This document shows, one piece after another, positions 14,676 through 58,948 of a stretch of DNA of 64,000 nucleotides (its first letter is position 1; the number at the start of each line of letters is the position of its first letter). A program made the translations under genes and the position numbers. Origin of the DNA: an uncultured beta proteobacterium (GTDB lineage Bacteria > Pseudomonadota > Gammaproteobacteria > Burkholderiales > JAEUMW01); assembly GCA_963734295.1 (NCBI GenBank), contig CAVTGS010000012.1:326099-390098 (forward strand). The letters are read 5' to 3'. Below the pieces are notes generated by a model that searched no databases, was not told the DNA's origin, and saw only the letters and a program-made list of their open reading frames with translations.

Positions 14676-14812
14676 TTCGGGACCCGTCAAAGCCGCGACG
14701 GCCGCGGCTTTGTGCTGGGGCAGGATGCCGACTTCGAAGCGTGCGTTCCCGGCCTCGTGAGCGATGCGGGCCGCTGTGGCAGGGTACAAGTGAGCATGAG
14801 GATCCCCACACC
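14676..14812 (-). pseudogene. Relic of a second copA-like P-type ATPase (internal fragment, frameshifted)
   Basis: Minus strand reads GVGILMLT...[34 protein letters not shown], parallel to intact Cop[49 protein letters not shown] identity to 16090-16230 is about 75% by eye. Confidence 0.65.
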
Positions 14813-14836
14813 GAGGTTACGCCGGCAGGCGACGAA

Positions 14837-15253
14837 TCATTCCGGCACTACTACCCGCGGCGCCAGCCCCATGCGTCGAGCTCGCCGGGCGAACTTCTTG
14901 TCGTCAAACGAGGCCATGCTGTCGCAACCTCGATAGCTGGCATGATGCAAGGCATCCGCCAACTCCAGCCCGGCTTCGCAATGGGAAAGCGCCTGGAGGA
15001 TGCTCTCTCGATCCTCGACCGTGACCTGGGGTAAGGCCAGAAGGTGATTCATCACTCCTGCAATCTCCGCCGTCGAGAACGCGTAATACCCGCGCAGCAC
15101 CCATTCCAGCTCCAGCAGCACGGTCTTGCAAACCATCAGCGGCCGGCCTGACTCCATCAGCCGCCGCGCGGCCTCCCGCTGCTTGGAGACATCGACGCCA
15201 CCTTGGTCCTGGATGTAATAGCGCGCCAGAACATTGGTATCGAGTCCGATCAC
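14837..15253 (-). CDS. vapC: PIN-domain toxin VapC
   Basis: C-terminal 138 aa of ORF 14837..15664, starting at GTG (V)IGLDTNVLARYY... A GTGA overlap joins it to the antitoxin stop. Confidence 0.8.
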   Translation of the reverse strand: MIGLDTNVLARYYIQDQGGVDVSKQREAARRLMESGRPLMVCKTVLLELEWVLRGYYAFSTAEIAGVMNHLLALPQVTVEDRESILQALSHCEAGLELADALHHASYRGCDSMASFDDKKFARRARRMGLAPRVVVPE

Positions 15254-15504
15254 CTGCTTCGCCCCGTCTTGTCCTTGCCCAGCAAACCGGCCGGATCGAA
15301 ATCCACCGATACGGCCCGCCGCTTGCTCTTGAGCATCCCGAAACCGCTTGCGGGAAGGTCTGCGGGCGTGCTGACGACACGCATTTCCACGTGGTCGCCG
15401 ACCAGGACAAACTCGACCTTGCTGCCCTGACGGAGCCCCAATTGCTGGCGCAGTGGTTTCGGAATGGTGACTTGCCCCTTGCTTGTAATGGACGTAATTT
15501 CCAT
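15250..15504 (-). CDS. vapB: AbrB/MazE/SpoVT-family antitoxin
   Basis: ORF 15250..15543 with start at MEITSITSKGQVTIPKPLRQQLGL (SpoVT-AbrB fold signature). Confidence 0.75.
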   Translation of the reverse strand: MEITSITSKGQVTIPKPLRQQLGLRQGSKVEFVLVGDHVEMRVVSTPADLPASGFGMLKSKRRAVSVDFDPAGLLGKDKTGRSR

Positions 15505-15682
15505 CGCTGGCACCTTGGTAATACCGCGTAAGAATAATACCATTCCTGGGGTGTCGCGGAGGTAGATCGTCCAGAAGGGATGGTGAAGGGGAGTGCTTGT
15601 GAAAGCGCGACGCGTCGCGGCGAAGGGTCCGCGAGCTATCGTCCGACTCGGCGTAAATCACCAATCTCTTGCACTGACCTGC

Positions 15683-18127
15683 TCAGGCTTCTCTTTGCTT
15701 TCTCTGCGCGCGCTGAGGCGCCCGCTCTTCCTGAACCCTTGGCTTCCACCGCCTGAGCGACAACGAATTCGTCACCACCGACACCGAGCTCATCGCCATC
15801 GCCGCGCCTGCGATCACCGGGCTCAGGAATCCGAGCGCAGCGAGCGGTATGCCGAGCACGTTGTAGATGAACGCGAAGAAGAGGTTCTGCCGGATCTTGC
15901 GCACGGTCGCGCGCGAGAGCAGCACCGCGTCCGCGACGCCGGTGAGGTCGTTACGCATGAGGGTGACGTCGGCCGCCTCGATGGCGATGTCGGAACCCGA
16001 GGCGAGGGCGAAGCTCACGTCCGCCGCGGCGAGGGCGGGCGCATCGTTGATGCCGTCGCCGGCCATACCGACGTGGCGATCGGGACCCTTGAGCGCAGCG
16101 ACAGCCGCGGCCTTGTTTTGGGGCAGGATGCCGGCTTCGACGCGTTCGATCCCCACCTCCTCGGCGATACGTGCGGCAATGGCCGCGTTGTCGCCGGTGA
16201 GCATGACGACCCCGACGCCGAGCTCGCGCAGGCGCGCCACTGCGTCCCGGGACGTGGGGCGTAGCGCATCGGCGATGCCAATGAGCCCGAGCGCGCGACT
16301 GCCGGTCCCGACCGCGACGACGGTCCGGCCTTCTCGCGATAACGATCCTGCAAGCGGCGCATCGACGGCAATCCCTGCGGCCGCGAGGAACGACTCCGAA
16401 CCGAGCACGTAGCGTGTATCGTCGATAGCGCCGGTGACGCCCTGACCCGCCACCGCCCGAAAGTCGCTCACCGGCGCGAGCGTCATACCCATCCCCCGCG
16501 CCGCATCGATGATCGCCTTCGCGAGCGGATGCTCCGAGCCCTGCTCGAGGCTGCCTGCGATGTGCAGCAATTCTTCGCGCGTTGTTCCGGCTGCAGGATG
16601 CACGGCCGTCACCACAGGCTTGCCCTCCGTCAGCGTGCCGGTCTTGTCCACGGCGAGCGTCGTAATGGTGCCGGCGCGCTCCAGCGCCGCTGCGTTGCGC
16701 ACGAGAATCCCGTGCTGCGCGCCGCGACCGGTGCCGACCATGATCGCCGTCGGAGTCGCGAGACCGAGTGCGCACGGGCACGCGATGACTAGCACCGCGA
16801 CCGCGTTGACGAGCGCCTGGGTGAAGTCGCCCGCGATGGCCCACCAGCCGGCGAAGGTGAGCAGCGCGATAGCGACGACGACGGGGACGAAGATGCCCGA
16901 TACCACGTCGGCCAGCCGCTGGATGGGCGCCTTGCTGCCCTGCGCCTGCTCGACCAGCCGCACGATCTCTGCGAGCTGGGTGCCGGCGCCGACACCGGTG
17001 GCGCGGATGCGCAGCATCCCTTGCTGATTCTGGGTCGCGGCGAAGACTCGGCTGCCAGCTCGCTTGGCTGTCGCCAAGCTCTCGCCGGTGAGCATGCTTT
17101 CGTCCACGCTCGAGTCGCCGTCGATGACCGACCCGTCCACCGGGATGCGCTCGCCGGCGCGCACGATCACCTCGTCGCCCGCCTCGAGCAGCGCCGCGTC
17201 GACCTCTACGACCTCGCCGGCGCGTACGACTCGCGCGGTCTTCGGCTGCAGCTTGATCAACGCTTCGATCGCGGCCGAGGTCTTGCCCTTCGCCCGCGCC
17301 TCCAGCACCTTGCCGAGCATGACGAGCGTGATCACCGCCGCGCTTGCCTCGAAATAGACGTGGAGCAGGTGGAGGCCGAACACCGTGACGACGGCGCTGA
17401 AGAGCCACGCCATGGTCGTGCCGAGCGCGACCAGCACGTCCATGTTCGCACCGCCGCCGCGTAAGGCGTGCCACGCCCCCCGGTAGAATCGCCAGCCGAA
17501 CCAGAACTGCACGGGCGTCGCGAGCACGAGCTGCAGCCAGCGCGGGAGCAGGTCGGCGTGGCTCGGGCCCATGGCGAACATCTGCGCCAGAAGCGGCAGG
17601 GTGAGCGCCGCGCTCAGCCAGAAGTCGCGCAGCTCGCGCCGGAAGTGGGCCGCGCGCTCCGCTTTCTCCCGCTCCTGGCTCGCGCCGGAGATTTCGTTCG
17701 CGCCATAGCCCGCGCGCGCGACCGCAGCGATCAGCTCGCCGACCCCGATGCTGCCCGGCGGGTAGGTCACCCGTGCGCGCTCGGTGGCGAGGTTTACCGC
17801 CGCGCTCACGCCCGGGAGCTTGGCGAGTACCTTCTCGACGCGTGCGGCGCAAGCGGCGCAGGTCATGCCGGTGATGGCGAGCTCGACGCTGCGGGTAGGT
17901 ACCGTGAAACCGGCGCCTTCGATGGAGTGGACCAGCGCATCGGCCGGGGTGGTAGCGGGATCGAAATCGATCTGCGCCTTTTCAGCCGCGAGGTTGACCG
18001 CCGCCGATACGCCGGGCAGGCGATTCAGCGTTTTCTCGAGTCGCGTCGCGCAGGCCGCGCAGGTCATGCCTTCGACGGGAAGCTCGATGCGCTGGCGGAC
18101 GGTGGTGTTCATGCGGGGTCCCTGCAC
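15683..18127 (-). CDS. copA: Copper-translocating P1B-type ATPase CopA
   Basis: 814-aa ORF with two N-terminal [11 protein letters not shown] domains, CPC motif ([12 protein letters not shown]), DKTGTLT and GDGINDAP. Confidence 0.95.
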
Positions 18128-30786: not shown

Positions 30787-32296
30787 TTACCCAGCCGCAC
30801 TCATCGCCCGCTCCCGCAGCACCCGCTTCAGCACCTTGCCCGTGGCGCTCTTCGGCAGTGCGTCGACGATGTTGACCCGATGCGGGACCTTGTACGGCGC
30901 GACATGCTCGCGGCAAAAGGCGACGATCTCTTCGGGCGTCACCTGAGCGTCCGCCTTCGGGACCACGTCCGCGAACACCTGCTCCCCGCGCACGCGATGG
31001 GCTGCACCGTACACCGCGGCTTCCTGCACGTCGAGGTGACGGTACAGCACCTGCTCGACTTCCGCCGGCCACACCTTCAGGCCCGCGACGTTGATCATGT
31101 CCTTCACGCGGTCGACGATGAAAAGATAGCCGTCCGCATCGAGCCGTCCGATGTCGCCGGTATGCAGCCAGCCGCCGCGCAGTGCCAGCGCGCTTTCCTC
31201 GGGCCGGTTCCAGTAGCCCTGCATCACGCCGGGACCGCGGAAACAGATCTCGCCCCATTCGCCGGTCGGCACCTCGCGGTCGCTCGTATCCAGGATGCGC
31301 ACGCGCACCCCCGGAACGCACCTGCCTACGCTGCCGATGCGGTGCTGATCGGGCACGTTGACGTTGGTGAGCGGTGAGGTTTCGGTGAGCCCGTAACCCT
31401 GGTAGATCGGGCGACCGGTGCGCGCCTGCCAGCGATGCACGAGCTCATCGGGCAGCGGCGCCGCACCCGCGACTTCGTATCGCAGCGAGGTGAGGTCGTA
31501 GTCCTCCAGCTGCATCGCGAGCAGCGTCGCATAGATCGTGGCGACGGCAAAGAGGAGGGTGGCGCGCTCCTCCTGAATGGCGCGAAGAATCACGCGTGGC
31601 TCGACCCGCCGGAACGAGAAGGAGCGTCGCGCCCGCCTCGAAGGCGGCGTTCATCATCACGTTCTGCGCGAACACGTGAAAGAGCGGCAGAAACGTCACG
31701 ACCTTGTCCTCGCGGACGAATTTCATCGTCTGTACCGTGATGCGCATGTTGGAGACGACATTGCCGACGGTGAGCGTCGCGCCCTTGGGTCGCCCGGTGG
31801 TGCCGGAAGTGTAGAGGATGGCTGCCGGGTCGCTCGCCTTCCGGGGCTCCATCGGACCCGACACCGAGGTACCCGCCATCCAGTCGCCGAGTGGCACCGC
31901 GCCATCGGCTTCCCCCTCGCACGCGACGACGTGCGCCAGGGCCGGGCAGCGGTCCCGCGGCACGTTCCGCACGAGATCGCCCACGGTGAAGACGGCGCGC
32001 GCGCCCGAATCGTCGAGGATGTACTGGACCTCCTCGGTCGTCAGCGTCGGATTCATGGATACCGCGATGCCGCCCACGCGCTGCACCGCGAGGTAGACGA
32101 GAGGAAACGCCGGAATGTTCGGCAGATAAAGCACGACCCGGTCGCCCGGGGCAATGCCCGCGTCCGCCAGCGATCGGGCGAGACGGGCTGCGTGCGCGTC
32201 GAGAGTGGCGTAGTCGATCGACGTGCCTTCGAAAACGATCGCGGCGTGGCGCGGATCGACGCGCGCCACCCGGGCCACGTGGCGGGCGATGTTCAT
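30787..32296 (-). pseudogene. AMP-dependent acyl-CoA synthetase/ligase, one frameshift near 31600-31612
   Basis: ORF 31445..32296 carries the N-half (YTSGTTGRPKG ... FEAGATLLLVP). ORF 30787..31593 carries the C-half ((V)ILRAIQEERATLLFAV ... GYGLTETS ... GDIG ... PKSATGKVLK). They join only by a 1-nt shift. Confidence 0.8.
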
Positions 32297-33185: not shown

Positions 33186-36330
<3,145 letters not shown>

Positions 36331-36334
<4 letters not shown>

Positions 36335-37206
36335 CGGCCCCCTGCCATTCGGGCTGCCTTCAGAGCGCCCGCAACGAGGACGCGGATCTCCTCGACGACG
36401 TGCTGCAGGCCGGGCGCTTCGAGGCGGTTCTTGTCGACAAACGCGTTCCACTGCGTTTGCTTCGCTGCGTCGCGGGCGAAGGCGTCCGAAAGTCCGAGCG
36501 GTACGCCGTCGGGAACCGTAGTGCGGCGGCGCTCGAAGGTGGCCAAGATCGCGCGCTCCAGCTCTCCGGGATCGCATACGTTCTCACGCAGCAGCGCATG
36601 CAGGTCGAAATAGTCCTTCATCCGGCTGTTGGCCGACCCGAGCGCCACCATGGCATGCAGCTTCTCCGCCATCACGGATGCGCGGGAATAGGCACGCAGG
36701 CGAGGCCGGGGCAGATCGAGCAGGCTGGGATAGTCGATCCAGGCCGGCTCCGGCGTCACCACGTCGCCGACGCCGACATCGACCTGCACACGGAGCCGCG
36801 CCGCGCCGAGGCGGGACTGAAGCGTCACTCGGTGCCCGCCGTATTCGGCTTCCAGGCGGATCGGTGCGACGCTCACCGTATCGGCCAGGAACGTCATCGC
36901 ATCTGGTTCGACGGTGGCGTTGCATACCTCGCCGAAGATCTGCGCCAGCGCATCGTCCGATAGGTCGCCGAAGCCCAGCAGGTCGGCATCGCGCGTCGGG
37001 CGAAGCGTATCGCCGAACCAGACTAGCAGGAGCAGCGCGCCCTTCAGCACGAACCGATCCCCATGGGGAGATTGTGAGAGCCGGTAAAGGAACCGCTCCA
37101 CGGCATAACGTGCGAGGACGAGGTTCGGGTCCACGCCGATCGCTTTCGCATGCCGCGCGAGCCGAACCTGCACCGAACGGGCGAGGCCGTCGCGCGCCCC
37201 GCTCAT
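36331..37206 (-). CDS. abiEii: AbiEii/AbiGii nucleotidyltransferase toxin (type IV TA)
   Basis: C-terminal 291 aa of ORF 36331..37305, from MSGARDGLARSVQVRLARHAK, with VLKGALLLL..RPTRDADLLG. Its stop overlaps the hsdR-A GTG start (GTGA). Confidence 0.8.
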
Positions 37207-37811
37207 CCCGCCAGCGACTCCAGATAGGGACGCATCACGCGCTGGACGCGGCAGACGGCGGCGTAGCGGTCCAGCGCATCCATCGTGAAGCGGCGCGCGC
37301 GCCAAGCCTCGCGCAGCGCCTCCAGCGCCACGTCGAGGCCGATCTTGTTGCGATACTTGAAGCAGTCGGCCAGGGTCTTGGCGACGCCGTAGACGCGCAC
37401 CGTGCGTCCCTCGATACGGTGCGACTCGACCCCTTCGGTCAGCGCCGCCCCAGAATAGCGGACCACGCGCAGCGGCGGATACTTCAACGCGGGACGCCGC
37501 GCGCGCCGGTCGATGGCGACCCAGACTTGGGCAGGCACGTGCGTGCCGAGGCCGTGGAACTGCAGCGCGGAAAGCAGGCAGATGGCGCCTTGCGGAATCG
37601 CGGCGCTCGCCATCACCAGGCCGTGGTGCTCCGTCGCAGACCGGTCGGCCAGCCGGTAGAGTCCACGCACGACGCGCTCGATCTCACCCGCGGCGACGAG
37701 CCGGGTCAGCACTTGGCGGTGAACGCCCGCTGCCGCGAGCTCATGGGCCGTCACGCCCTGGCTGCGGCGCGCAAGCTTGAGGACCTGATCCCGTTGGTTA
37801 GCCGCAGGCAT
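37203..37811 (-). CDS. abiEi: AbiEi antitoxin (wHTH transcriptional autoregulator)
   Basis: 202-aa ORF with VTAHELAAAGVHRQVLTRLVAAGEIERVVRGLYRL and a C-terminal AbiEi_4-like region. It overlaps abiEii by 4 nt. Confidence 0.8.
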   Translation of the reverse strand: MPAANQRDQVLKLARRSQGVTAHELAAAGVHRQVLTRLVAAGEIERVVRGLYRLADRSATEHHGLVMASAAIPQGAICLLSALQFHGLGTHVPAQVWVAIDRRARRPALKYPPLRVVRYSGAALTEGVESHRIEGRTVRVYGVAKTLADCFKYRNKIGLDVALEALREAWRARRFTMDALDRYAAVCRVQRVMRPYLESLAG

Positions 37812-37813
37812 GT

Positions 37814-37846
37814 GGCTAATCGTAGCCTCTCGCGACTAAATGTCAA
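37814..37846 (-). promoter_or_regulatory. Putative abiE promoter with palindromic operator
   Basis: Minus strand reads TTGACA (37846-37841), 16 nt, TACGAT (37824-37819), 7 nt, ATG. A perfect palindrome GGCTA-CGAT-TAGCC (37814-37827) overlaps the -10 element. Confidence 0.4.
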
Positions 37847-37902
37847 CGTTTCGCCACGCATCTATGGTCGCGCGCAAGCGCATCGCGCGGCGTCCCGCCC
37901 CC

Positions 37903-38105
37903 ACCGCCAGCCAGTCGTTGCCCACCGGGTCGTCGAAGTCGATCACCCGCGCCTGCGGGACGCGTCAGCTTGTGGAAGGCGTCGTCCAGGGCTTCGGCGA
38001 GCAGTGTCGGGTTGAGCCGCGCGAGTGCGTCGCGCAGGCGCGCTGCACCAGGACCACCTCCCCGTAGTCGTCGCGCTCGACGACGGATTCGGTAAAGGAG
38101 GTCAT
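37903..38105 (-). pseudogene. hsdR: hsdR 5' remnant (copy B), internally deleted and frameshifted
   Basis: Own translation gives [10 protein letters not shown] | [12 protein letters not shown](fs)[27 protein letters not shown] | [17 protein letters not shown], after which the homology ends. Confidence 0.75.
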
Positions 38106-38260
38106 CCCAGTACGCTTCTTGGGGAAAGCCTTAAATAGGCAACCCGTTGTCTAAAAACGGTTTCATAGTTGACCCACCCCTCGTTAGGGGTTTGCGCCTA
38201 AATGAAAATCTCGGATTAATGATCTCCGACCGGCAACCGCGTCGGGAGAAACTCCGGGGC

Positions 38261-39325
38261 CTATTCAACTCCGTGCTTCATCCAGCCCAGGTCTTTGAGA
38301 CGTCGCCACGCGGCGGCGACTTGTTCGCGCCGCATGAGTTCCGCCTTGCGCGTGCTCCATGCCCGAACGGCCTTTGCTGCCGCCTCGGGTTTTCTCGCGG
38401 CTTCGGCATCCTCCCGCGTCGCCACCCAGTGCACCGTCGCGAGCAGTTCCATGCCGAGAGGCGTCTCGAATCCTTCGATCAACTCGGAAACCCGGTCGAA
38501 GCGTGCACGCGTGTCGGCGTGATCGTTCAAGTACCGCTCCGCCGCGGCGGCGGCTTCAGGCTTGAGGTGAATCGGCGTGTCAGGTTTGTTCTCGCCAGCG
38601 CCGTAACCGGTAATGAAGTGGCCGTCCATCTTTTCCAGCACATGGCGCAACACGTCCGCATAAGGGCCGTAATGGTGCCGAACGAATCTGACCTGGTTCA
38701 GTTGCTCTCCAGCCTCGGTGAGGAAGTAGACGAGCTTCTGAATCTCCAACAACGTAACGGGATAGTCGAAGCCAGGAACCAGATAACGGTTAATGAGCCC
38801 GAGCACGGCCGCGCGCCCCTTGGTCATCTTCGGGCGTGGCGTATGGTTTCTTATGCCCTTTGCGTCCGGCGCGCCCGCAGGTTCGTAAACCAGCCAGCGG
38901 ACTTCCGGCACCCGTGCGAACGCTTCGCGCATCCGCTGCTGCACTTCGGGCCAGGGCAAGCCGCCCAGGCCGCAGCCCAACGGTGGTACGGCAACGGACC
39001 GGATGCCCATGCGGTGCACGTCGGCGAGCAGCGCCTGCAGCCCGGATTCGATATCTTCCATCCGCGATGGGCTGCGCCAATGCCGCTTGGTGGGGAAATT
39101 GATGATGAAGCGCGGGTTGGTCAGCGCCTGACGGTCGAAAATGAACATGCGCCCGGGCATCACCTCGCCCGCCCCACACGCGCGCCGATAGGCTTCGTAG
39201 TTGTCGGGATACGCCTTGCGGAACTGGAGTGCGATCCCCTTGCCCATGACGCCTTCCGTGTTGACCGTATTCACCACGGCCTCCACGTCAGCCTCCAGCA
39301 AATTGCCTCTCGTCAGCTCGAACAT
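38261..39325 (-). CDS. darG: DarG antitoxin (macrodomain DNA ADP-ribosyl glycohydrolase)
   Basis: ORF 38261..39394 with start at MFELTRGNLLEADVEAVVNTVNTEGVMGKGIALQFRKAYPDNY (macrodomain). GGAGG lies 7 nt upstream. The long C-terminal domain is as in DarG. Confidence 0.85.
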   Translation of the reverse strand: MFELTRGNLLEADVEAVVNTVNTEGVMGKGIALQFRKAYPDNYEAYRRACGAGEVMPGRMFIFDRQALTNPRFIINFPTKRHWRSPSRMEDIESGLQALLADVHRMGIRSVAVPPLGCGLGGLPWPEVQQRMREAFARVPEVRWLVYEPAGAPDAKGIRNHTPRPKMTKGRAAVLGLINRYLVPGFDYPVTLLEIQKLVYFLTEAGEQLNQVRFVRHHYGPYADVLRHVLEKMDGHFITGYGAGENKPDTPIHLKPEAAAAAERYLNDHADTRARFDRVSELIEGFETPLGMELLATVHWVATREDAEAARKPEAAAKAVRAWSTRKAELMRREQVAAAWRRLKDLGWMKHGVE

Positions 39326-39338
39326 AGCCCCTCCGTTT

Positions 39339-39956
39339 TCAATAGTACCAATCGCGACGAATCTCGACTCGTGGTTTGTGGCCAATTCCGGCAATCGCAG
39401 CCCTGACCCGCTCCGCGATGGATTGGTCGATCACGCCGATGGCCTCAATCGCCTCCCAGGGGCACCAGTCATGAACCAGGAACTCGGCCTGCCGCTTTTC
39501 CTTCACCTCTGTGTCGCCACCCCACTGACGCAACGGCATCACCGCCCAGTCCACCTCGTCGAGCTTGGCTGTGGTGTCGTACTGATTCGCGTAGCCAAGG
39601 TCAGCATGACGATCCGTGAAAAACCAAGGCCTCGCGGTCGCCCGAATCGTTTCGATGGACGACACCAGATGCACAATGGGTTGCTGGCCCTCTCGGTAAT
39701 TTTCATGCCCCTGCGCGACCACGTAGAGCATCACCGAGCGCGGGCAGAAGTTGAATGGGACATAGTTGCCCAGCGTGCCGCCGGCCGCCACAGTCACCGA
39801 ATGACGCAACCGCCGCACCTTGATGTGACTGTAGCCGATGTTGGTATTCGCGAGTTCATGGGCGGTGCGCTGCGCGTCACACCACAGGCGACCCTCGCGA
39901 ACAATTTGTTCCAGATTGTCTGCGTGGGTGATGTGGTAGATGGCGCGGTTGGTCAC
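39339..39956 (-). CDS. darT: DarT ssDNA thymidine ADP-ribosyltransferase toxin (DUF4433)
   Basis: 205-aa ORF (GTG start) [29 protein letters not shown] ... FFTDRHA ... [14 protein letters not shown]. Confidence 0.85.
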
Positions 39957-40183
39957 GGTGCCGCAACCTCTGAAAGGCTTGCCATCTTGAATCTGGCCCT
40001 GTTCGCCTGTCGTCCCACCGCAATACCATTCTTACCGCGGTACTGCGCCGTCACGCCGTTCACCAGGATGCGGTGCAGGGCGCGGTTGCGCACGATGAGG
40101 TCCGCGCCTTCGGGCCGCGTCAGTTTGCGGAAGGCATCGTCCAATGCCTCGGCGGGCAGCGCCGGGTTCAGCCGCGCAAGCGC
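39953..40183 (-). pseudogene. hsdR: hsdR 5' remnant (copy C), distal piece after the IS21 insertion
   Basis: [54 protein letters not shown]..., then truncated. Its stop overlaps the darT GTG. Confidence 0.75.
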
Positions 40184-40267
40184 TGTCGCGGATCGGCATA
40201 AAGGAGCCGGGGATGATCGGCATAATGGAGCCAGTTTCGGAGGGGTAAGACGGGCATCCCGGCGTGG

Positions 40268-41056
40268 TTAAGAATGGGTGGTTTTGGACGTATTGGCAAC
40301 CTTGATTTTGTTGGCCGTAGGGGCGAGTTTCGGCGCCCGATACGACTGCCCGTCGAGTACCAGGCAGTAGGCGTTGTGGCGTAGCCGATCCAGGGTCGCC
40401 GAGGCCAGCAGTCGGTTGGCGGGGAAGGCTTGATCCCACTCGGTGAAGTCGAGGTTGCTGGTAACGATCGTGGCAGTGGTTTCGTAACGTTCGGCGATCA
40501 GATCGTGCAGATCTTCATCGGCGGGTGGACGCAGCGGCTTGAGGCCGAAGTCGTCGATCACGAGTAGCGCAATGCGGGCGAGGCTGGCGAGTTTGCGCTC
40601 GTAGGTACCGGTGGCGCGGGCGGCGTTCATGGCGGCGACCAGTTGCGCGCAGGTGGTGAACAGCACGTCGACGCCCTGGCGGATGGCGCAGTGGCCGAGG
40701 GCCTGCGCGAGGTGCGACTTCCCGGTGCCACACGGTCCGACGATGAGCACGGGGACGCGCTCGTCGAGGTAACGGCCGGTGGCGAGCTCGTGCACCAGGG
40801 CGCGATTGAGTTGCGGCAGGCGTTCGAAGTCGAACTGATCGAGGGTCTTGCTGGCGCGGAAGGCGGCACGGCGCAAACGCAGGGCGAACTTCTTTTGTTC
40901 GCGCCGGGCAACCTCATCCTCGATCAACAGCGCCAGGAACTCGGTGTAGGCGAGCTTGCCGTCGAGGGCTTGGCGATTACGTGCCTCGAGCGAATCGAGG
41001 ATGCCAGACAGGCGCAGTTGTTTGAGATAGGGAACGAGCTCGGGAACGGGGTTCAT
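40268..41056 (-). CDS. istB: IS21 helper ATPase IstB
   Basis: C-terminal 262 aa of ORF 40268..41776, from MNPVPELVPYLKQLRLSGILDSLEARN, with Walker A GPCGTGKSHL and LLVIDDFG. Confidence 0.9.
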   Translation of the reverse strand: MNPVPELVPYLKQLRLSGILDSLEARNRQALDGKLAYTEFLALLIEDEVARREQKKFALRLRRAAFRASKTLDQFDFERLPQLNRALVHELATGRYLDERVPVLIVGPCGTGKSHLAQALGHCAIRQGVDVLFTTCAQLVAAMNAARATGTYERKLASLARIALLVIDDFGLKPLRPPADEDLHDLIAERYETTATIVTSNLDFTEWDQAFPANRLLASATLDRLRHNAYCLVLDGQSYRAPKLAPTANKIKVANTSKTTHS

Positions 41057-41079
41057 CGGTGATGCCTCCGGGGTGGGAT

Positions 41080-42612
41080 TCAGTGCAGCAGGGTGGGATC
41101 GACGCCGAACAGGGTCTCGGCGTCGCGGACAAAGCGTGCGCTGGTACCGTACGCGCGCGCCGATGCGGGGACATGCAGCAGCGGTTGTTGATCGAAGCCG
41201 CCGGCGAGAATGGTCTTGACGGTGCGGTAGAACGGGCTGTCGTGAGCGAGCGCCCGGGCGCACGCGGCTTCCAGCCGGGCGTTGCCGTAGCGTTCGGCCA
41301 AGCGCAGCACACCTTGCGCGGCGCGTAGCCTCTCGACGATGCGATCGGCGAGCAGTTGGTCGACCAATTGCGCGCAGGCGGGACCCACTGCCGTGGCTTG
41401 CTGCAGGCACCAGTGGCGGTCGTGGGCGAAGTAGGCTTGCGCCTGCGGCGGCAGGTGATCGCGGACGGTGAAGCGTTGCCCGGGTTTGCGGCCCCGCGGA
41501 TGCACCGCGACCTGCCGATAGTCCTGATAGATCGCCACGGCGGTGTCGGTGGCCCGCAGCCACAGCGCCTGGCCGATCAAGGTGAACGGTACCGAGTAGA
41601 AGCAGCGGTCGAACTGGACGTGGCAATCGCGATGCACGCGCACGCCACTCCAGGTGCCAAGATCGGGCGCGATCGCCGGCAAGGCGCGCAGCAGCCGTTT
41701 CTCGACGGCGAACAGCGCGAGTGGCTGCGTGCGGGTAGTGCCGTGGATACGCACCCCCGCTTCCGTCATCACCCATTGCCGGACTTGGGCATTGAGATCG
41801 GCGAGATCGCGAAAGCTGCGGGTCGGCAGGAAGTTACCCTTGACATAGCCGACCCCGCGCTCGACGACGCCCTTCTTCGCCGGATCGGCGGGCGGACACG
41901 GGTCGATCTTGAAACCGTACCCTTCCGCGCACTCGGCGTAGGCGCGCTGCACCAGCGGATCGCGGGCACAGGCGCGAGTGATAGCGCACTTGGGGTTGTC
42001 GATAATGACCCGCGCCGGAACGGCGGCGAACCATTCGAAGGCGCGGCGGTGACAGCCGAGCCAGGTAGCCACCGTCTGCTCCCACACGAACTCGACGTAC
42101 TGATGGCGCGAGAAGCACAGCGTCATCACGAACGCCCAGGTACGGCGCAGCTCGCTACGAGCGGGATCGAGCAGCAGCGGCCCGGCACCGAAATCGACCT
42201 GCGCTGCTTCGCCGGGCGCGAACTGCAGCCGCACCGTGGCCTGCGGCGGCCGCGCCGCGTTGAGCGCGGCGAGCATGCGCCGCACCGCCGAGTAGCTGCC
42301 GCTGTACCCATGCTCGCGACACAGCGCAGCGTGGATCGCGACACCACCCACACCCTGCTCGGCCCAGCGCGCCACCACATCGCGAAACGGCTCGACCGTG
42401 GAAATCGTGCTGCGCGCCCGGCGCGCCTGGCCGATCACCACCGCGATCTCGCCGTCCTCGGGCAGCGGCGTGTCGGGGGCGAGCCAGCCCTGCTGCGTGG
42501 CCAGCGCCCGCAGCGCTGCCACCTTCGGCCGGCCCATCAACCGCGCCCGGGCAATATCGCGGTCGGAATCGCCCTGGCGCAAGCGCACCAGGACCGCTCG
42601 ATACTGGAACAT
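41080..42612 (-). CDS. istA: IS21 transposase IstA
   Basis: ORF 41080..42654 with start at MFQYRAVLVRLRQGDSDRDIARA. HTH plus a DDE (rve) core. Confidence 0.9.
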   Translation of the reverse strand: MFQYRAVLVRLRQGDSDRDIARARLMGRPKVAALRALATQQGWLAPDTPLPEDGEIAVVIGQARRARSTISTVEPFRDVVARWAEQGVGGVAIHAALCREHGYSGSYSAVRRMLAALNAARPPQATVRLQFAPGEAAQVDFGAGPLLLDPARSELRRTWAFVMTLCFSRHQYVEFVWEQTVATWLGCHRRAFEWFAAVPARVIIDNPKCAITRACARDPLVQRAYAECAEGYGFKIDPCPPADPAKKGVVERGVGYVKGNFLPTRSFRDLADLNAQVRQWVMTEAGVRIHGTTRTQPLALFAVEKRLLRALPAIAPDLGTWSGVRVHRDCHVQFDRCFYSVPFTLIGQALWLRATDTAVAIYQDYRQVAVHPRGRKPGQRFTVRDHLPPQAQAYFAHDRHWCLQQATAVGPACAQLVDQLLADRIVERLRAAQGVLRLAERYGNARLEAACARALAHDSPFYRTVKTILAGGFDQQPLLHVPASARAYGTSARFVRDAETLFGVDPTLLH

Positions 42613-42767
42613 CTCGATTCTCCTACGCCCCACCGCGGTTCTCCCTCTGGACAAAAGTCCGAAAGGGTAGCGGTAACGCGCTCAGTTCGAGATGCCCGTC
42701 TTTGCCTCACCTGGCTCCAATATGCCGATCACGGAGTGGCTCCAATATGCCGATCGCTGACAAGCGC

Positions 42768-42926
42768 GTCGCGCAGGCGCTGCAGAAGGACCACCTGCCC
42801 GTAGTCGTCGCGTTCCGCAGCGGGTTCGCCGGGTGCGATCTTGGCGCCGTTCCTGACCTGCCAGCCGACGATTTCCAGCCAGGCAAGCGCGGCTTGCTCG
42901 ACGACGGATTCAGTGAAGGTAGTCAT
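42768..42926 (-). pseudogene. hsdR: hsdR 5' remnant (copy C), proximal piece before the IS21 insertion
   Basis: ORF 42729..42926: [55 protein letters not shown], then IS21 terminal sequence. Confidence 0.85.
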
Positions 42927-42976
42927 GAAGTCGGCCTGTGCCGGGACACGCTTAAATGAGCCGCCTGTTGATTTAT

Positions 42977-44602
42977 CCTAAAAACGGCAAACGGCGATCT
43001 CGCCATTGTGTAACCTTTTGAGTGGGCGAGGGGAAGTTGCTATTGGGGGAGCCACCAAATGGGTGAAGCGAGAAAGCGCGGTGCTGCTGCGGTGCACGAG
43101 GCGCTGACAGTGCTGGGGGTCGAGGCGCTCGGAGGCCCAGTGCAGGTGCGCTGGAACCAGCGTGAAGCGGCGACACCGTTCGGTCAGATGGCGTATTTTG
43201 CGGAGTTTCTGAATCTCACGGGGTTGTACCGGCGCTGGGTCGAGAGTTGCCCGTTGCATTATGCGAGCCCGAACGGATCGCAGATTGGCGACGTGCTGGG
43301 GACGCTGTTCTTGTCGGTGCTCGCGGGGCACTGGCGCTATGCGCACATCGCGGCCCTGCGCGCTGACGCGGTCAGTGCGGGGTTGCTGGGGATGAAGGCC
43401 ATCGTCTCCGAAGACACGGTGCGCCGGGCGCTGAAGGCGCTCGATGAGGACGCAGCGGTGGGCTGGTTGCAGTCTCATCTGGATGCCAGTGTGCTGCCGC
43501 TGCTGGCCGCGCCGTGGGTGCTCGACACCGATGTGACGGTCAAGCCGCTGTACGGGAAGCAGGAAGGAGCGCTCATTGGCTACAACCCGCACAAGCCGGG
43601 GCGTCCCTCGCACGCCTACCACAGCTACCAGATGGCGGGGCTGCGACTGATGCTGTCGGTGACGGTGGCCGCGGGCAATCAAAGCCACGCCAACGCCACC
43701 CTGCCTGGACTGATCGAGTTGATCGAACGCTTGCCGCGCGAGAAGCGTCCGGCGCTGGTGCGCGGCGACTGCGGCCAGGGCGGCGAGCCGACGATGGCAG
43801 CGCTGGAAGCACGCGCGGTGCACTACTTGTTCAAGCTGCGTCTCACGAAGAACGTCAAGCGCTATATCGAGCGCAGCTTCGCCAGCGGGCAGTGGTGCGA
43901 TGCGGGGCAAGGCTGGCAAGCTCAGGAGGGAATGATCCAGCTCATGGGTTGGAGCCGAGCGCGGCGTATCGTGATTCTGCGTCGCCCGCTGCAGGGCGAC
44001 GTGCTGCTCAGCGATGAACAGCAACTGCGCCTGGCCTTCGTCGAGAAGGACGTCCCGGCCAAGGGCTACGAGTACGCCGTGCTGGTGACCGATCTTGCCT
44101 ACGACATGCTCGCCATCGCGCAGCTGTACCGCGACCGCGGCGATGCGGAGAACGCCTTCGACGAGTTGAAGAACCAGTGGGGCTGGGGCGGCTTCACCAC
44201 GCACGATCTGAAGCGTTGCCGCCTCACCGCCATGACCGTGGCGCTCGCCTACAACTGGTGGAGCCTGTTCGTGCGACTCGCCCACCCCGAGGGGCGCCTG
44301 GAGGCAATCACCAGCCGCCCGTTCCTGCTCTCGGCGATCGGGCGCATGACTTCCCATGCCGGACAGACTCACCTGTCGATCACGCCGATGCACGCAAAGG
44401 CAACCTACGCCCGAGCGCTGCTCACCGCGGTGAGCCAGCGGTTGCAGGGCTGGAAAAGATCTGCGGAGCAGTTGCCCATCATATCGGTGTGGCAGCGCGT
44501 GTGCGAGTTCATCGCCACTCACGTGACTGGATTCAACTGGCTCGCAGCGCGATCGGAACCCCGCTTGATGCACTGCACATAGAGGCAACTGCGGTTTTTA
44601 GG
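42977..44602 (+). mobile_element. IS element, IS1380-family-like (single DDE transposase)
   Basis: Terminal inverted repeats CCTAAAAACGGCA (42977-) and TGCGGTTTTTAGG (-44602). Flanking 5-bp direct repeat TTTAT (42972-42976 and 44603-44607). About 1.6 kb with CC ends, which fits IS1380. Confidence 0.6.
43059..44582 (+). CDS. DDE transposase (IS4/IS1380 superfamily)
   Basis: 507-aa ORF with LDTDVT, RGDCGQGG and YRDRGDAENAFDELKNQWGWGGF (Y-R-E-K-type C-terminal signature). Confidence 0.8.
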   Translation: MGEARKRGAAAVHEALTVLGVEALGGPVQVRWNQREAATPFGQMAYFAEFLNLTGLYRRWVESCPLHYASPNGSQIGDVLGTLFLSVLAGHWRYAHIAALRADAVSAGLLGMKAIVSEDTVRRALKALDEDAAVGWLQSHLDASVLPLLAAPWVLDTDVTVKPLYGKQEGALIGYNPHKPGRPSHAYHSYQMAGLRLMLSVTVAAGNQSHANATLPGLIELIERLPREKRPALVRGDCGQGGEPTMAALEARAVHYLFKLRLTKNVKRYIERSFASGQWCDAGQGWQAQEGMIQLMGWSRARRIVILRRPLQGDVLLSDEQQLRLAFVEKDVPAKGYEYAVLVTDLAYDMLAIAQLYRDRGDAENAFDELKNQWGWGGFTTHDLKRCRLTAMTVALAYNWWSLFVRLAHPEGRLEAITSRPFLLSAIGRMTSHAGQTHLSITPMHAKATYARALLTAVSQRLQGWKRSAEQLPIISVWQRVCEFIATHVTGFNWLAARSEPRLMHCT

Positions 44603-44777: not shown

Positions 44778-46549
44778 TCATGGCACTTCTTCTGGCGCAG
44801 CGGACTTGAAGAGATCCGTGAGCGCGTCGAGCTTTTGCCCAACCTCTCCATCGATGGTCGCAGGATCAACGCCGTCCACAAGTTCATGAAGGCTGCCCTT
44901 GCGCAACAACATGGGCGTATTGGTCTGCGCCGCCACCCGGCGGAAGAACTCTTCAGCGAAGTCGGACAGCTTGACCTGCCGCGTCGCTGTGTCCCAAATT
45001 AGCCGGCGCGCATCGACGGCGGCATTGCGCCAGGTATCGAAGTCGTGCGCACGGTTGCCGAACACGCGCTCCCGGACTAGCTCGTCGAGCACTTGATCGA
45101 CGACTGCATCGAACAGCGGCAACGCGAGCTTGTTCTTGGCATAGGCAGCCAAGAGTGTCGGAGTGACGAAATAGTTCTCCGCCTCGTAGCGCTGCCAGTA
45201 GCGGACACTCAAACCGCCTTCGTCAGCGTCCTGTCGATTCTTGCCGTCGTTATCGAGGACAGCGAGCCCCTTCAGACTGGGCAGGAGATTGCGCAACGCA
45301 AAGAAGTGCGCGCGTGGTGTGATGCCGAAGCCGCCCTCGACACGCTCAAGTTCGCTGTCAGTGTCAGCCAGCGGGTAATTGTCTTGCACGTAGAACGCGT
45401 TCATGCGTTCGTCCCAAATCGTGGCGACCGGGTGGTTAAGCCTTCGGGCGAGCGCCTGCAGCATGTCGAGGTCCGTGCCGCCTTCGACATACAGCACATA
45501 ACCGCGCTGCCTGGCGCGGACGTAGTGCTCGGCGCCGAAGTGCTTCAGCGCGTTCTTGATGTCTGCCTTCTGCGCCAAGTCGTCCGCCCGACCTTCAAGG
45601 AGTAGCACCAGGTTCGTATCGAGCGCCTCGTCGAGGATGACCTCCGAGTGCGTGGCCATGACGATCTGCGAGCCGCTTTCTCGCGCGACGTCGCGCAGCA
45701 GCACGTAGATCTGCCGCTGGCGGAGGATCTCCAGGTGCGCATCAGGCTCGTCGACGAGCACGATGCTGCCCCTGTGCGCATAGAGGTACGCGAGCACCAG
45801 CAGCATCTGCTGCAAGCCGCGACCTGCCTGTGAAAGATCGAAGGGCGTCTTGGCGCCTTCCTGCCGGTAGTCGAGCGTGACGGCGCCCCGTGTCGTCTCG
45901 GCCGGGTCGCCCAGGCGGATGCGGAACAGCCGATACATGAAGTCCCTGACCCGCTTCCAATCGTCGGGCGCATCTCGCGCGACCATCAGGCAAAGGTTAC
46001 GCAACACCTCCGCGGTCCGCCCCTGGCCCAGCAGCACGTCGATTCGGCCCGACTTCAAGATCGGCTCCTCGCTCTCCAGGCCGGACATCGGGTAGAGCAG
46101 CTCGGTCTTAATGGCGGCGGCCTGTGCGATGAGGGCCATGTCCTGCTTGGCGTCGTCGGCCGGATCGCAGTAGATCAAGTCGTCGCCGAAATTGCGAAAC
46201 GACATGGTTAACGGTTTGACGTCGCCGTGGACCCAAACTCCCGCCGTGAGGGTCATCGGGACATCCTTGTTGCCGGTACGCACCTTGGCCTGATGCCACA
46301 AGAGCCGCGTCCTCGGGATGGGTACTGCCGTCATCGCAAGGCGGTTGATGGCCGCCGCAGTACGGTCTCTGGCGCTGGACTTGGCACGCGCTTCGTGCCA
46401 GCTTTTCACTGCGAGCGACCATAGCGCGATGCCCTGGATCGCACTCGTCTTGCCACAGTTGTTAGGGCCGATCAGCACCGCGGGATGCCCCAGCGAGATG
46501 CGCTGCTTCTCACCGAAACGCTTGAAGTTCTCGATCTCGATGTACTCGA

Positions 46550-46556
<7 letters not shown>
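44778..46556 (-). CDS. Fused ABC-type ATPase (AAA_15/21-like) + DUF4435/Toprim-like domain protein (PARIS AriA-AriB-like fusion)
   Basis: 592-aa intact ORF with Walker A GPNNCGKT, signature-like LSQAGRGLQQ, Walker B IVLVDEPDAHL and ATHS. The C-terminus has YVLYVEGGTDLDML, LAVLDNDG and YEAENYF. Its start overlaps the hsdS stop by 7 nt. Confidence 0.7.
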
Positions 46557-49504
<2,948 letters not shown>

Positions 49505-49521
49505 TGCACGTCCTTTTGTGA

Positions 49522-50715
49522 TCACGCGGGCGCCTGCGCAGCCCCGCCCCCGGGCCCCGCATCGTTGAACAGCGCGATATAGGGCGCAAAGCGAAAGCGC
49601 CGGTTGCGCGCATAGCCCGTCATTTCGCTCAGCACGCCGAGCCTCACGAGCCGGGACACCAGGCTGTTTGCCGCTGCGTAGGTGGTGCCGGTCATCTTCT
49701 GCACGTCATTTACCGCGACGATCGGTCGGTCGAACAGCGATTCGAGCACCTTGTGGCCGCTACCCGCCGCGCGGCCGAGTTGCGCCGTGATCGCGGCGCG
49801 GTGCTGCTCGCGCAGGTGCAGGATGCGCCGCACCGTCTCCGCGGCCTCGCCGGCCACCCCGATCACACCACGCAGGAAGAAGCTTAGCCAGTCCTCCCAG
49901 GCGCCGCTGTCGCGTACCGCCTGCAAGTGCTCGTAGTACGTCTGCCGGTGCTGCTTGAAGAAATGCGACAGGTACAGCACCGGCTTGTGCAGCACGCCGC
50001 GCTCGGTGAGCAAGAAGGTGATCAGCAGCCGGCCAACGCGCCCGTTGCCGTCGAGGAACGGGTGAATCGTCTCGAACTGCACATGCGCGAGCGCGATTTT
50101 CACGAGCGGCGGCAGGTCGTCGGACGCGTGCAGGAACTTCTCCAGGTTCCCCAGCACGTCGGGCACCGCGTGGTGCGGCGGCGGCACAAAGGTCGCGCTA
50201 TTCAGCGTGCAGCCTGCCGGGCCGATCCAGTTCTGGCTCGTGCGCAGTTCACCGGGCTGAAGCCGGCCGCCGCGCACGCCGCGCATCAGCTCGGCGTGGA
50301 TCTCGCGGATCAGCCGCACCGACACCGGCAGTTCGGGCAGCCGTGCCAACCCGTGGTTCATTGCCCGCACGTAGTTGATCACCTCGCCCACGTCGCGCGG
50401 CAACCTCTGTTCGAAGAGCTGCGCCTCGGCCGCCAGCAGGTCTTGCAGCGAGCTTTGCGTGCCCTCGATCTGGCTGGAGAGCACCGCTTCCTTACGCACA
50501 TACATGAAGACGAAGAGGTCGGGGTTCGGCAGGGTGAGCACCGACCCGTCGAGCCGACCCAGCGCGCGGTCAGCGGCCGACAGCAGGCCCTGCAGCTCGC
50601 CGCCCAGTGCCAGCGCGGGCTGTGGCGGCAGCGGTGCCGGCATGAACGCCCGGTAGCCCGTGGGCTGGGTGATGTAGCGTCCCGCTCTGATCGAGGCTTC
50701 GCCGCCAGTTGCCAT
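49522..50715 (-). CDS. Fic/DOC family protein
   Basis: 397-aa ORF with the Fic motif [14 protein letters not shown], a Fic_N-like N-terminus and a C-terminal wHTH. It ends just upstream of hsdM. Confidence 0.85.
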
Positions 50716-58117: not shown

Positions 58118-58948
58118 TTACGCAGCCAAGCGCATGGGCGGCAGCGCTGCCAGATACTGCTCGTCGGGCGTGATGCGCCCCAGGCTCGAATGACTGCGAT
58201 GCGTGTTGTACCAGGACAGATACTCGGCAATGTCGGTGCGTGCCGCGCTCACGCTGTCGTAGGCTTTCAGGTACACCCGTTCGTACTTCACGCTGCGCCA
58301 CAGGCGCTCGACGAAGACGTTGTCGCGCCAAGCCCCGCGCCCGTCCATGGACAGCTTGCAGCCTTGCTCCAGCACGACTCGGGTGAACTCTTCGGCCGTG
58401 AACTGGCTGCCCTGGTCGGTGTTGACGATCTCAGGGGTGCCGTATCGGGCCAAGGCCTGTTCCATCACCTCTCTGGCGTGGCAGGCTTCCAGCGTGATCG
58501 CCACCTTGTGCGCCAGCACCTTGCGGCTGACCACATCGACCACGGCAGTGAGGTACACGAAGCCCCGCGCCATCGGGATGTAGGTGGTGTCCAGCGCCCA
58601 GACCTGGTTGGCGCGGGTGATCGCCAGCTGGCGCAGCAGGTAGGGGTAGATGGTGTGGCCCGGTGTGGTTTTGCTGGTGCCCGGCTGGGGTGCCAGCGCC
58701 TCAATGCCCATGCGCAGCATCAGCGTTCTGATGTGGCGTCGTCCCGCATGGATACCTTGCCGAGCCAGGTGGTCACGCAGCATGCGTGCACCCATGAAGG
58801 GGTGCTCCAGGTGCAGTTCGTCAATCTTGCGCATGAGTGCCAGATCGGCCGGGCTGACCGGCAAAGGCAAGTAATACACCGTGCCCCGACTGATGTTCAG
58901 CAGCTTGGCCTGGCGCGTGATGGAAAGCTCGTGGTCTCGGTCAATCAT
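58118..58948 (-). CDS. IS3-family transposase OrfB (DDE integrase core)
   Basis: 276-aa ORF with [18 protein letters not shown] and [11 protein letters not shown]. Confidence 0.9.

Follow-up and report, generated by a model that had tools for sequence, protein, structure and literature searches.

The subject of this work is a gene, here called gene X, that lies directly behind the specificity gene hsdS in a type I restriction-modification (R-M) locus of an uncultured beta proteobacterium of the Burkholderiales. The stretch of DNA that was analysed, called the window throughout, comprises 64,000 nucleotides (nt; assembly GCA_963734295.1, contig CAVTGS010000012.1, positions 326,099 to 390,098 of the forward strand), and gene X occupies its positions 44778..46556 on the minus strand, a span that includes the stop codon. 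Translation from the ATG start gives a single chain of 592 amino acids (aa) in which an OLD-type ABC ATPase is followed by a well-supported Toprim nuclease. An initial annotation, made from the letters of this open reading frame (ORF) and its translation, had described it as an ABC ATPase fused to a DUF4435/Toprim protein, PARIS-like and coupled to hsdS, and the short peptides on which it relied are all present in the translation; how far the description itself holds is discussed below.

Although chance long ORFs arise at the G+C content of the window (about 65%), gene X is a genuine conserved gene under purifying selection and not a chance ORF. The database holds 7992 relatives of its product, and the 120 best matches listed are full-length, with 62-92% identity. 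Against a 90%-identical relative (locus L082), the ratio of nonsynonymous to synonymous substitution rates (dN/dS), which averages over both lineages, is 0.13 for the whole gene; taken separately, the ATPase half gives 0.08 and the C-terminal half 0.17. The product names given to relatives at NCBI already read 'ATP-dependent nuclease/endonuclease'.

The stop codon of hsdS and the start codon of gene X overlap by 7 nt (ATGCTGA, 46550..46556, minus strand), as can be read directly in the context cgc gcg cc ATG C TGA tcg. A GGAG precedes the ATG of gene X by 8 nt. The same 7-nt overlap is present in the relatives L082-L084. The coupling proposed initially is thus borne out by the overlap, and gene X is co-transcribed and translationally coupled with hsdS in an operon of the order Fic-hsdM-hsdS-X. 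The hsdS gene itself (46550..47710, minus strand) is an open frame of 386 aa with a Pfam Methylase_S match (1.8e-15) and 40% identity to residues 10-374 of the 374-aa HsdS of L082. The operon begins with a Fic/DOC gene (49522..50715, minus strand; Pfam Fic_N and Fic), whose stop codon overlaps the start of hsdM; the first minus-strand gene listed ahead of it encodes a dehydrogenase of the Iso_dh family (isocitrate/isopropylmalate-type).

The ATPase and Toprim halves of the protein

The N-terminal half of the protein (residues 1-334, 45555..46556) was shown to be a complete OLD-type ABC ATPase with all catalytic motifs in place. Pfam assigns it to AAA_21 (72.7 bits, 7e-20) and AAA_15 (58.3 bits, 1.4e-15), both above their cut-offs, in agreement with the ABC/SMC-type ATPase that had been read from the motifs. 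These are, all on the minus strand, the Walker A sequence GPNNCGKT (residues 30-37, 46446-46469), the Q-loop residue Q41, the signature-like LSQAGRGLQQ (residues 241-250, 45807-45836), the Walker B/D-loop stretch VLVDEPDAHL (45732-45761), which contains the quoted LVDEPDAHL (residues 267-275), and the H-loop ATHS (residues 301-304, 45645-45656). In two family alignments, Walker A, Q41, the AGRG of the signature-like motif, the DE of Walker B, the D-loop and the histidine of the H-loop are invariant or nearly so. Matches of the query to PADLOC models (NsnB, AriA, Old, GajA, PtuA, AbiLi and MAD3) are confined to the P-loop or to the signature/Walker B region, and NCBIfam matches all fall far below cut-off. 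ATPases of the OLD type are common to OLD, Gabija, PARIS, Septu and Menshen (PMC12065111, PMC12839542). A Foldseek search with the full-length model returns PtuA, GajA, the heads of SMC proteins and the OLD protein of Thermus scotoductus; its alignments to GajA (8u7i, 672 columns) and to Thermus scotoductus OLD (6p74, 674 columns) span about 670 columns, and the order of the domains is thus that of OLD and not a different one.

In that full-length search, ABC/SMC heads dominate and swamp other matches, and the C-terminal half was therefore modelled alone. The AlphaFold2 (AF2) model of residues 335-592 (258 aa) has a predicted local distance difference test score (pLDDT) of 87 and a predicted template-modelling score (pTM) of 0.84, and its elements follow the order beta1-alpha1-beta2-alpha2-beta3-hairpin-helix, after which comes a helical bundle. 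The Toprim core covers residues ~350-465 (45162..45509, minus strand), supported by this topology, by conservation, by profile alignment with hhalign and by the PADLOC matches of distant members. Its first part, the peptide YVLYVEGGTDLDML (residues 353-366, 45459-45500), holds beta1 and the run E358-G-G-T-D362, with E358 just past the strand; LAVLDNDG (residues 431-438, 45243-45266) holds beta3 and D435-N-D437, with D435 at the end of the strand; and YEAENYF (residues 457-463, 45168-45188) holds E458-A-E460-N-Y, with both glutamates opening the next helix. The helical domain that follows (residues ~466-585, 44802..45161, minus strand) is all-helical in the model with pLDDT above 90, and carries an invariant K553 and near-invariant K529, E571 and D577. 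When this model is searched against the PDB, the five top matches are C-terminal regions of class 2 OLD proteins (among them 6njx, 6njv and 6njw, with probabilities of 0.93-0.95, and 6nk8), in alignments of 259-267 columns that take in both the Toprim and the helical domain. AriB is absent from the 50 PDB matches listed, and the viral library of Foldseek gives no meaningful match. The comparison of predicted structure thus returns a Toprim topology, as initially expected, with its nearest relatives in class 2 OLD and not in AriB.

Conservation across the family points in the same direction. In an alignment of members with 28-54% identity to the query, E358, D362, D435, W454, E458, E460, Y462 and K553 are invariant and G359, T361, N461, K529 and E571 nearly so. 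The two-metal site of Burkholderia OLD is built from E400, E404, D455/D457 and T506/E508 together with K562, a catalytic lysine of the helical domain (PMC6755086), and the set E358/D362/D435/E458/E460 plus K553 would, at the level of sequence, parallel E400/E404/D455/E508/K562. Aligned with P2 Old by hhalign, the family profile stays colinear with it over the signature, Walker B and the H-loop and on into the segment VLLVEGKTE in P2 Old, matched by VLYVEGGTD, with 81% probability. When only the C-terminal profile is compared with this one P2 Old sequence, 24 residues align at a probability of 1.8%, a comparison that is too insensitive to be informative.

Matches to nuclease models come from distant members of the family. 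A search with the C-terminal domain yielded 434 representative clusters, whose full-length members are nearly all 550-610 aa long with the domain at residues ~340-590. Among the C-terminal domains of 26 diverse relatives, six match the PADLOC AriAB model (the best at 9.2e-6, over the Toprim core of the profile, positions 429-529 of 694) and one matches AriB (5e-4, positions 3-100 of 236), while three GajA models are each matched weakly by one domain (E 0.011-0.029). Faint Pfam matches in the same set include those to DUF4435 (0.028, one domain), DUF3226 (0.041, two) and OLD-like_TOPRIM (0.09, one), all of which we take to be families of the Toprim clan. Scanned against Pfam at full length, on the other hand, 43 distant relatives match ATPase families only (25 families listed at E<=0.1) and not DUF4435, and none of the 61 matches of the most AriB-like relative (P0232) carries PF14491 (DUF4435). 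Many of the relatives in this most AriB-like subfamily (P0271-P0330) are just 200-310 aa long despite the length of their contigs; these could be stand-alone AriB-like Toprim proteins or frameshifted gene calls in metagenome-assembled genomes from long reads.

Taken together, the AF2 model, the Foldseek matches, the matches of distant members and the invariant residues make the reading of the C-terminal half as a Toprim nuclease with a helical domain well supported. The family is a divergent branch between AriB-type and OLD-type Toprims. The Toprim part of the initial description thus stands; the label DUF4435 is not supported.

Relatives and their gene neighbourhoods

Relatives of gene X occur in at least 546 species in a scan of one genome per species, distributed over Proteobacteria, Acidobacteriota, Verrucomicrobiota, Planctomycetota, Chloroflexota, Gemmatimonadota, Bacteroidota and Cyanobacteria. 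A tblastn search of plasmids found no full-length relatives, and the family is essentially absent from them.

Several of these relatives lie inside type I R-M operons, on metagenomic contigs as well. The intact locus of L082 reads hsdM, a SLFN/AlbA_2 gene, hsdS, X, a second SLFN/AlbA_2 gene and hsdR; a Pseudogulbenkiania locus reads hsdM-hsdS-DUF1016-X-hsdR, one from Pseudorhodoferax (L088) hsdM-hsdS-X-DUF5655-Fic-hsdR, and one from Thioalkalivibrio (L081) hsdR-X-hsdM-hsdS. Placement between hsdS and hsdR within such an operon is seen in the window and in L001, L004, L019, L021, L037, L068, L082-85, L087 and L088. A Fic gene, like that of the window, lies inside the Pseudorhodoferax locus and adjoins that of Thioalkalivibrio. 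The latter locus has, after hsdS (14702-17384), another OLD-ABC ATPase (matching AAA_15/AAA_21 and, faintly, DUF3696, and resembling NsnB of Menshen) with a 311-aa partner that has no Pfam match, so that two unlike ABC-ATPase modules lie within one type I locus.

A first survey of R-M neighbours, in which the frameshifted proteins of the window served as tblastn queries, lacked sensitivity and was replaced by iterated hidden Markov models (HMMs) for HsdM, HsdR and HsdS, run over the 80 best species-representative loci, and by counts of Pfam families among neighbours. Genes resembling hsdM, hsdR or hsdS lie near X in 24 of these 80 loci, and in 9 of the 40 that have at least 6 kb on both sides. 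Loci that show all three hsd genes have them arranged as M-S-X-(cargo)-R. The order hsdM-hsdS-X-hsdR, with X placed 0-15 nt from hsdS or overlapping it, recurs in several phyla. Judged by Pfam, the immediate upstream neighbour carries Methylase_S in 9 of 64 loci and the immediate downstream neighbour carries HsdR domains in 5 of 63. A few loci contain Eco57I, MmeI or Type ISP enzymes; the remaining neighbours are unrelated and often housekeeping genes. Type I R-M embedding is thus found in about a quarter to a third of the sampled loci, with some 70% lying outside R-M loci; it is frequent and well beyond chance placement, yet not obligatory.

In eight cases (L006, L018, L022, L023, L053, L056, L077 and L079), an ORF of 1000-1400 aa stands directly upstream of X, and in L006, L018, L023 and L079, this ORF matches the HsdM and/or HsdR HMMs. 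The upstream neighbours, taken as a pool, also include Pfam matches to Eco57I, MmeI and Type ISP. The linkage may thus extend to single-chain restriction enzymes of Type IIG/ISP.

The type I locus in the window

With the intact genes of L082 as reference (tblastn), two of the three R-M genes of the window are found to be broken. The hsdM gene (47789..49525, minus strand; Pfam HsdM_N and N6_Mtase in two stretches) leaves its frame near 48701 and regains it near 48274-48142, contains additional inserted sequence and indels of 2, 28, 5 and 26 nt, and is thus a pseudogene or non-functional. The hsdR gene lies ~8.4 kb downstream of X (33186..36334, minus strand; Pfam HSDR_N, SWI2_SNF2, T1R_D3-like and T1RH-like_C on fragments) and runs through the frames -1/-2/-3/-1/-3, with at least four uncompensated frame changes over 36334-33192. 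Its indels of 1-2 nt fall outside homopolymer runs, and indels cluster in hsdM and hsdR, whereas gene X and the Fic, DarTG, AbiE and IS21 genes are open, which makes true decay likelier than sequencing error; we thus think it unlikely that the frameshifts are errors of assembly. An AMP-dependent ligase-like gene at 30787-32296 (minus strand; translation judged by eye) appears split into the overlapping ORFs 31445-32296 and 30787-31593, and the further frameshift that this implies, outside the R-M genes, bears on the question of sequencing error. The initial view that the R-M genes look inactivated thus applies to hsdM and hsdR, but not to hsdS, which is open.

The material between gene X and hsdR (36331..44582, both strands) was resolved with Pfam and with tblastn searches using the intact HsdR of L082. 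Next downstream of X is a transposase of the DDE_Tnp_1_4 family (43059-44582, plus strand), followed by istA (41080-42654, minus strand) and istB (within 40268-41776, minus strand) of an IS21 element, so that two unlike insertion sequences stand back to back over 40268-44582. Farther on, still inside the split R-M locus, is a DarT-DarG toxin-antitoxin/defence pair (38261-39956, minus strand), in which both DarT (39339-39956; PF14487, 4e-60) and DarG (38261-39394; macro domain) are apparently intact. AbiEi (37203-37811) and AbiEii (36331-37305), also on the minus strand and apparently intact, come immediately upstream of the decayed hsdR. Three remnants of the 5' end of hsdR (42762-42926, 39989-40183 and 37902-38040) correspond to aa 1-55, 54-118 and 50-129 of the HsdR of the intact relative, with 63-80% identity, and lie where the IS21, DarTG and AbiE cassettes adjoin one another, which suggests serial insertion or exchange of cassettes at the 5' end of hsdR. 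The interval between X and hsdR may thus be a cargo slot; relatives have SLFN/AlbA_2, DUF5655 with Fic, or nothing there. Elsewhere in the window, an ORF resembling orfB of IS3-type transposases was noted by eye (58118-58948, minus strand).

Function, rival readings and known systems

We consider it probable that gene X encodes an autonomous, single-chain, ATPase-gated Toprim nuclease of the OLD/PARIS superfamily, acting as a defence effector that needs no working restriction enzyme. Most relatives are solitary, and X is intact beside dead hsdM and hsdR genes; both argue that it is independent of a working restriction complex. The context is one of defence, since the locus also contains type I R-M genes, Fic, DarTG and AbiE. 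By analogy with OLD, GajA and PARIS (PMC6755086, PMC10568477, PMC11464382, PMC12409363), the ATPase head would dimerise or oligomerise and serve as sensor and gate, a phage-derived trigger would relieve this gate and license the Toprim site to cut nucleic acid, the substrate would be tRNA (as for AriB) or DNA (as for OLD and GajA), and cleavage would stop infection, probably at a cost to host growth. As to the substrate, the sequence leans towards AriB and the structure towards OLD.

A number of observations weigh against this reading. First of all, residues 322-592 of the protein itself give no match to any Pfam or PADLOC model, DUF4435 included, even at E<=10. Second, PDB sequence searches with three different queries reach no solved structure beyond the ATPase. 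Third, the Foldseek alignments to class 2 OLD have weak scores (E ~1e-2, TM-score 0.31-0.38, root-mean-square deviation ~10 Å). Fourth, the second aspartate of the DxD motif, present in gene X as D437, is not kept family-wide, and in this the family also differs from OLD. Fifth, the dN/dS values cannot show that X functions in this one genome. Finally, substrate, trigger and anti-phage activity are all argued from analogy.

Of the known systems, class 1 OLD (P2 Old and the OLD proteins of Thermus scotoductus and Vibrio cholerae) is like X in being one polypeptide of ~580-600 aa, ATPase first and Toprim second, and in sharing the VEGxT[ED] opening of the Toprim, colinear with P2 Old. Both are often solitary genes (PMC10568477 for OLD). 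The models for OLD (Pfam OLD-like_TOPRIM, PADLOC Old and GajA) nevertheless miss the C-terminal half of X, and whereas class 1 OLD is described as not adjoining other defence genes (PMC10568477), a quarter to a third of the X family lies in type I R-M operons. Gabija GajA, a class 2 OLD, is likewise an ATPase-Toprim fusion, and the C-terminal half of X finds its best structural matches in the Toprim and the helical domain, with its catalytic lysine, of class 2 OLD (PMC6755086). GajA HMMs, on the other hand, cover the ATPase only, with E ~0.01-0.03 for the C-terminal domains of relatives, and X lacks a GajB/UvrD-like helicase: in the window, a transposase follows it, no helicase family recurs among the neighbours in 81 loci and none is listed immediately downstream in 63 loci.

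PARIS resembles X in joining an AAA_15/AAA_21 ATPase to a Toprim effector, and through those distant members whose C-terminal domains match AriAB or AriB; the two may further be linked, in concept, by the sensing of anti-restriction. PARIS is typically found on P4-like satellites and in prophage hotspots, whereas the X family is chromosomal and essentially off plasmids. Its operational definition demands AAA_15 at >=32 bits or AAA_21 at >=27 bits together with DUF4435 (PF14491) at >=27 bits in the same or an adjacent protein (PMC9122126); X scores above the ATPase thresholds for both families, but has no DUF4435 match. Single-gene fused AriAB proteins have been reported with PARIS (PMC9122126), and the PADLOC AriAB model does match X (E 2.4e-12); the match is limited to 73 residues of the ATPase (259-331), and the C-terminal half has none. 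The term 'PARIS-like' is thus acceptable only broadly, in the sense of an OLD-ABC plus Toprim module, while the structure lies nearest to class 2 OLD and not to AriB.

Like X, PrrC and RloC combine an N-terminal ABC-type NTPase domain and a nuclease at the C-terminus in one protein. The gene order at the EcoprrI type Ic locus is prrA-prrB-prrC-prrD, with prrC between hsdS and hsdR, and gene X takes the same slot in the Fic-hsdM-hsdS-X operon. The nuclease domain of PrrC is a HEPN-like anticodon nuclease (ACNase), unrelated to the Toprim of X, which has no Pfam, NCBIfam or PADLOC match to an ACNase domain and whose C-terminal half folds as a Toprim in the AF2 model; most X relatives, moreover, are not R-M linked. 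Both the embedding of PrrC in its type I operon and its guardian role are established (PMC12707154). OLD-ABC plus Toprim modules are also embedded in BREX and BREX-related loci, where they are read as a countermeasure to anti-restriction (PMC12839542); such 'backup effector' modules are like X in sitting inside a restriction-like operon, but the host operon of X is classical type I R-M and its Toprim is divergent and fused.

These parallels bring in the strongest of the rival readings, in which X, in line with the guard logic raised initially, would watch over the neighbouring type I enzyme in the manner of PrrC or PARIS. It would be silenced by contact with HsdS, HsdM or HsdR or else sense an anti-restriction protein such as an Ocr-like DNA mimic, and a block of restriction would be needed for its nuclease to act, probably on tRNA. 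The hsdM-hsdS-X-hsdR order recurs in several phyla with a spacing of 0-15 nt or an overlap to hsdS, X sits in the position of prrC, distant family members resemble the AriAB and AriB models, and the concept has the precedents of PrrC and of PARIS, which senses Ocr (PMC12707154), and of the BREX modules (PMC12839542). Only ~25-30% of the sampled loci are R-M linked, however, the others having housekeeping or unrelated neighbours; an intact X beside dead hsdM and hsdR is hard to square with obligatory silencing; and X falls outside the operational definition of PARIS. We thus regard a guardian role as plausible, but unlikely. A more elaborate version, which we find decidedly doubtful, would make the family a Toprim-based analogue of PrrC that evolved independently from OLD/PARIS parts: a latent nuclease co-made in stoichiometric amounts with HsdS would dock on the type I methyltransferase or restriction complex and be freed when a phage anti-restriction protein (a DNA mimic or an Stp-like peptide) disables that complex, and the solitary members would be derived and self-sensing.

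It is very improbable that X, instead of being a defence system in its own right, serves the type I enzyme as an accessory subunit, for example as an alternative nuclease or as a processor of DNA ends that assists HsdR. Its translational coupling to hsdS suggests balanced co-expression, and in many loci, it lies between hsdS and hsdR, but most members of the family are found where no R-M genes are present. An R2M2S1 complex already makes up a full type I enzyme and needs no subunit of this kind. In addition, SLFN/AlbA_2, DUF1016, DUF5655, Fic, DarTG and AbiE fill the same inter-genic slots, and the presence of such unrelated cassettes points to a cargo site for independent defence genes. Finally, we find it scarcely credible that X belongs with the housekeeping ATPases of DNA repair or recombination (RecF/RecN/SbcC-like) and has a C-terminal domain that is not a nuclease: there are SMC heads among the Foldseek matches and similarities to Pfam SMC_N and AAA_23, but SMC_N falls slightly under its cut-off and covers the P-loop region only, the gene is patchily distributed over several phyla, in surroundings that vary and include mobile and defence genes, and the topology of its C-terminal domain is that of a Toprim whose acidic set is invariant.

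Returning to X as an autonomous OLD/PARIS-type effector, the kind of system (OLD-ABC plus Toprim), the existence of fused AriAB proteins (PMC9122126) and the naming of relatives as nucleases at NCBI are already known. What appears new is a large, divergent fused family whose nuclease half is missed by Pfam and PADLOC and which turns up repeatedly, within type I R-M operons, at the position of PrrC. Modules of OLD-ABC and Toprim (OLD, Gabija, PARIS and retron effectors) form a major class of anti-phage effectors, of which this family is an apparently large and phylogenetically broad branch (more than 7900 database relatives in at least 546 species). Since its nuclease half is invisible to the releases of Pfam and PADLOC (v2.0.0) used here, PADLOC-style rules that demand full-length matches probably miss the family or label its ATPase only. 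The recurrence of the family in the slot of PrrC offers a concrete and testable case, outside the enterobacteria, for layered immunity in which restriction would be backed by a second nuclease, and the window shows that such a module can outlast decayed restriction genes. The family thus extends present concepts and overturns none, and annotation would gain from its recognition.

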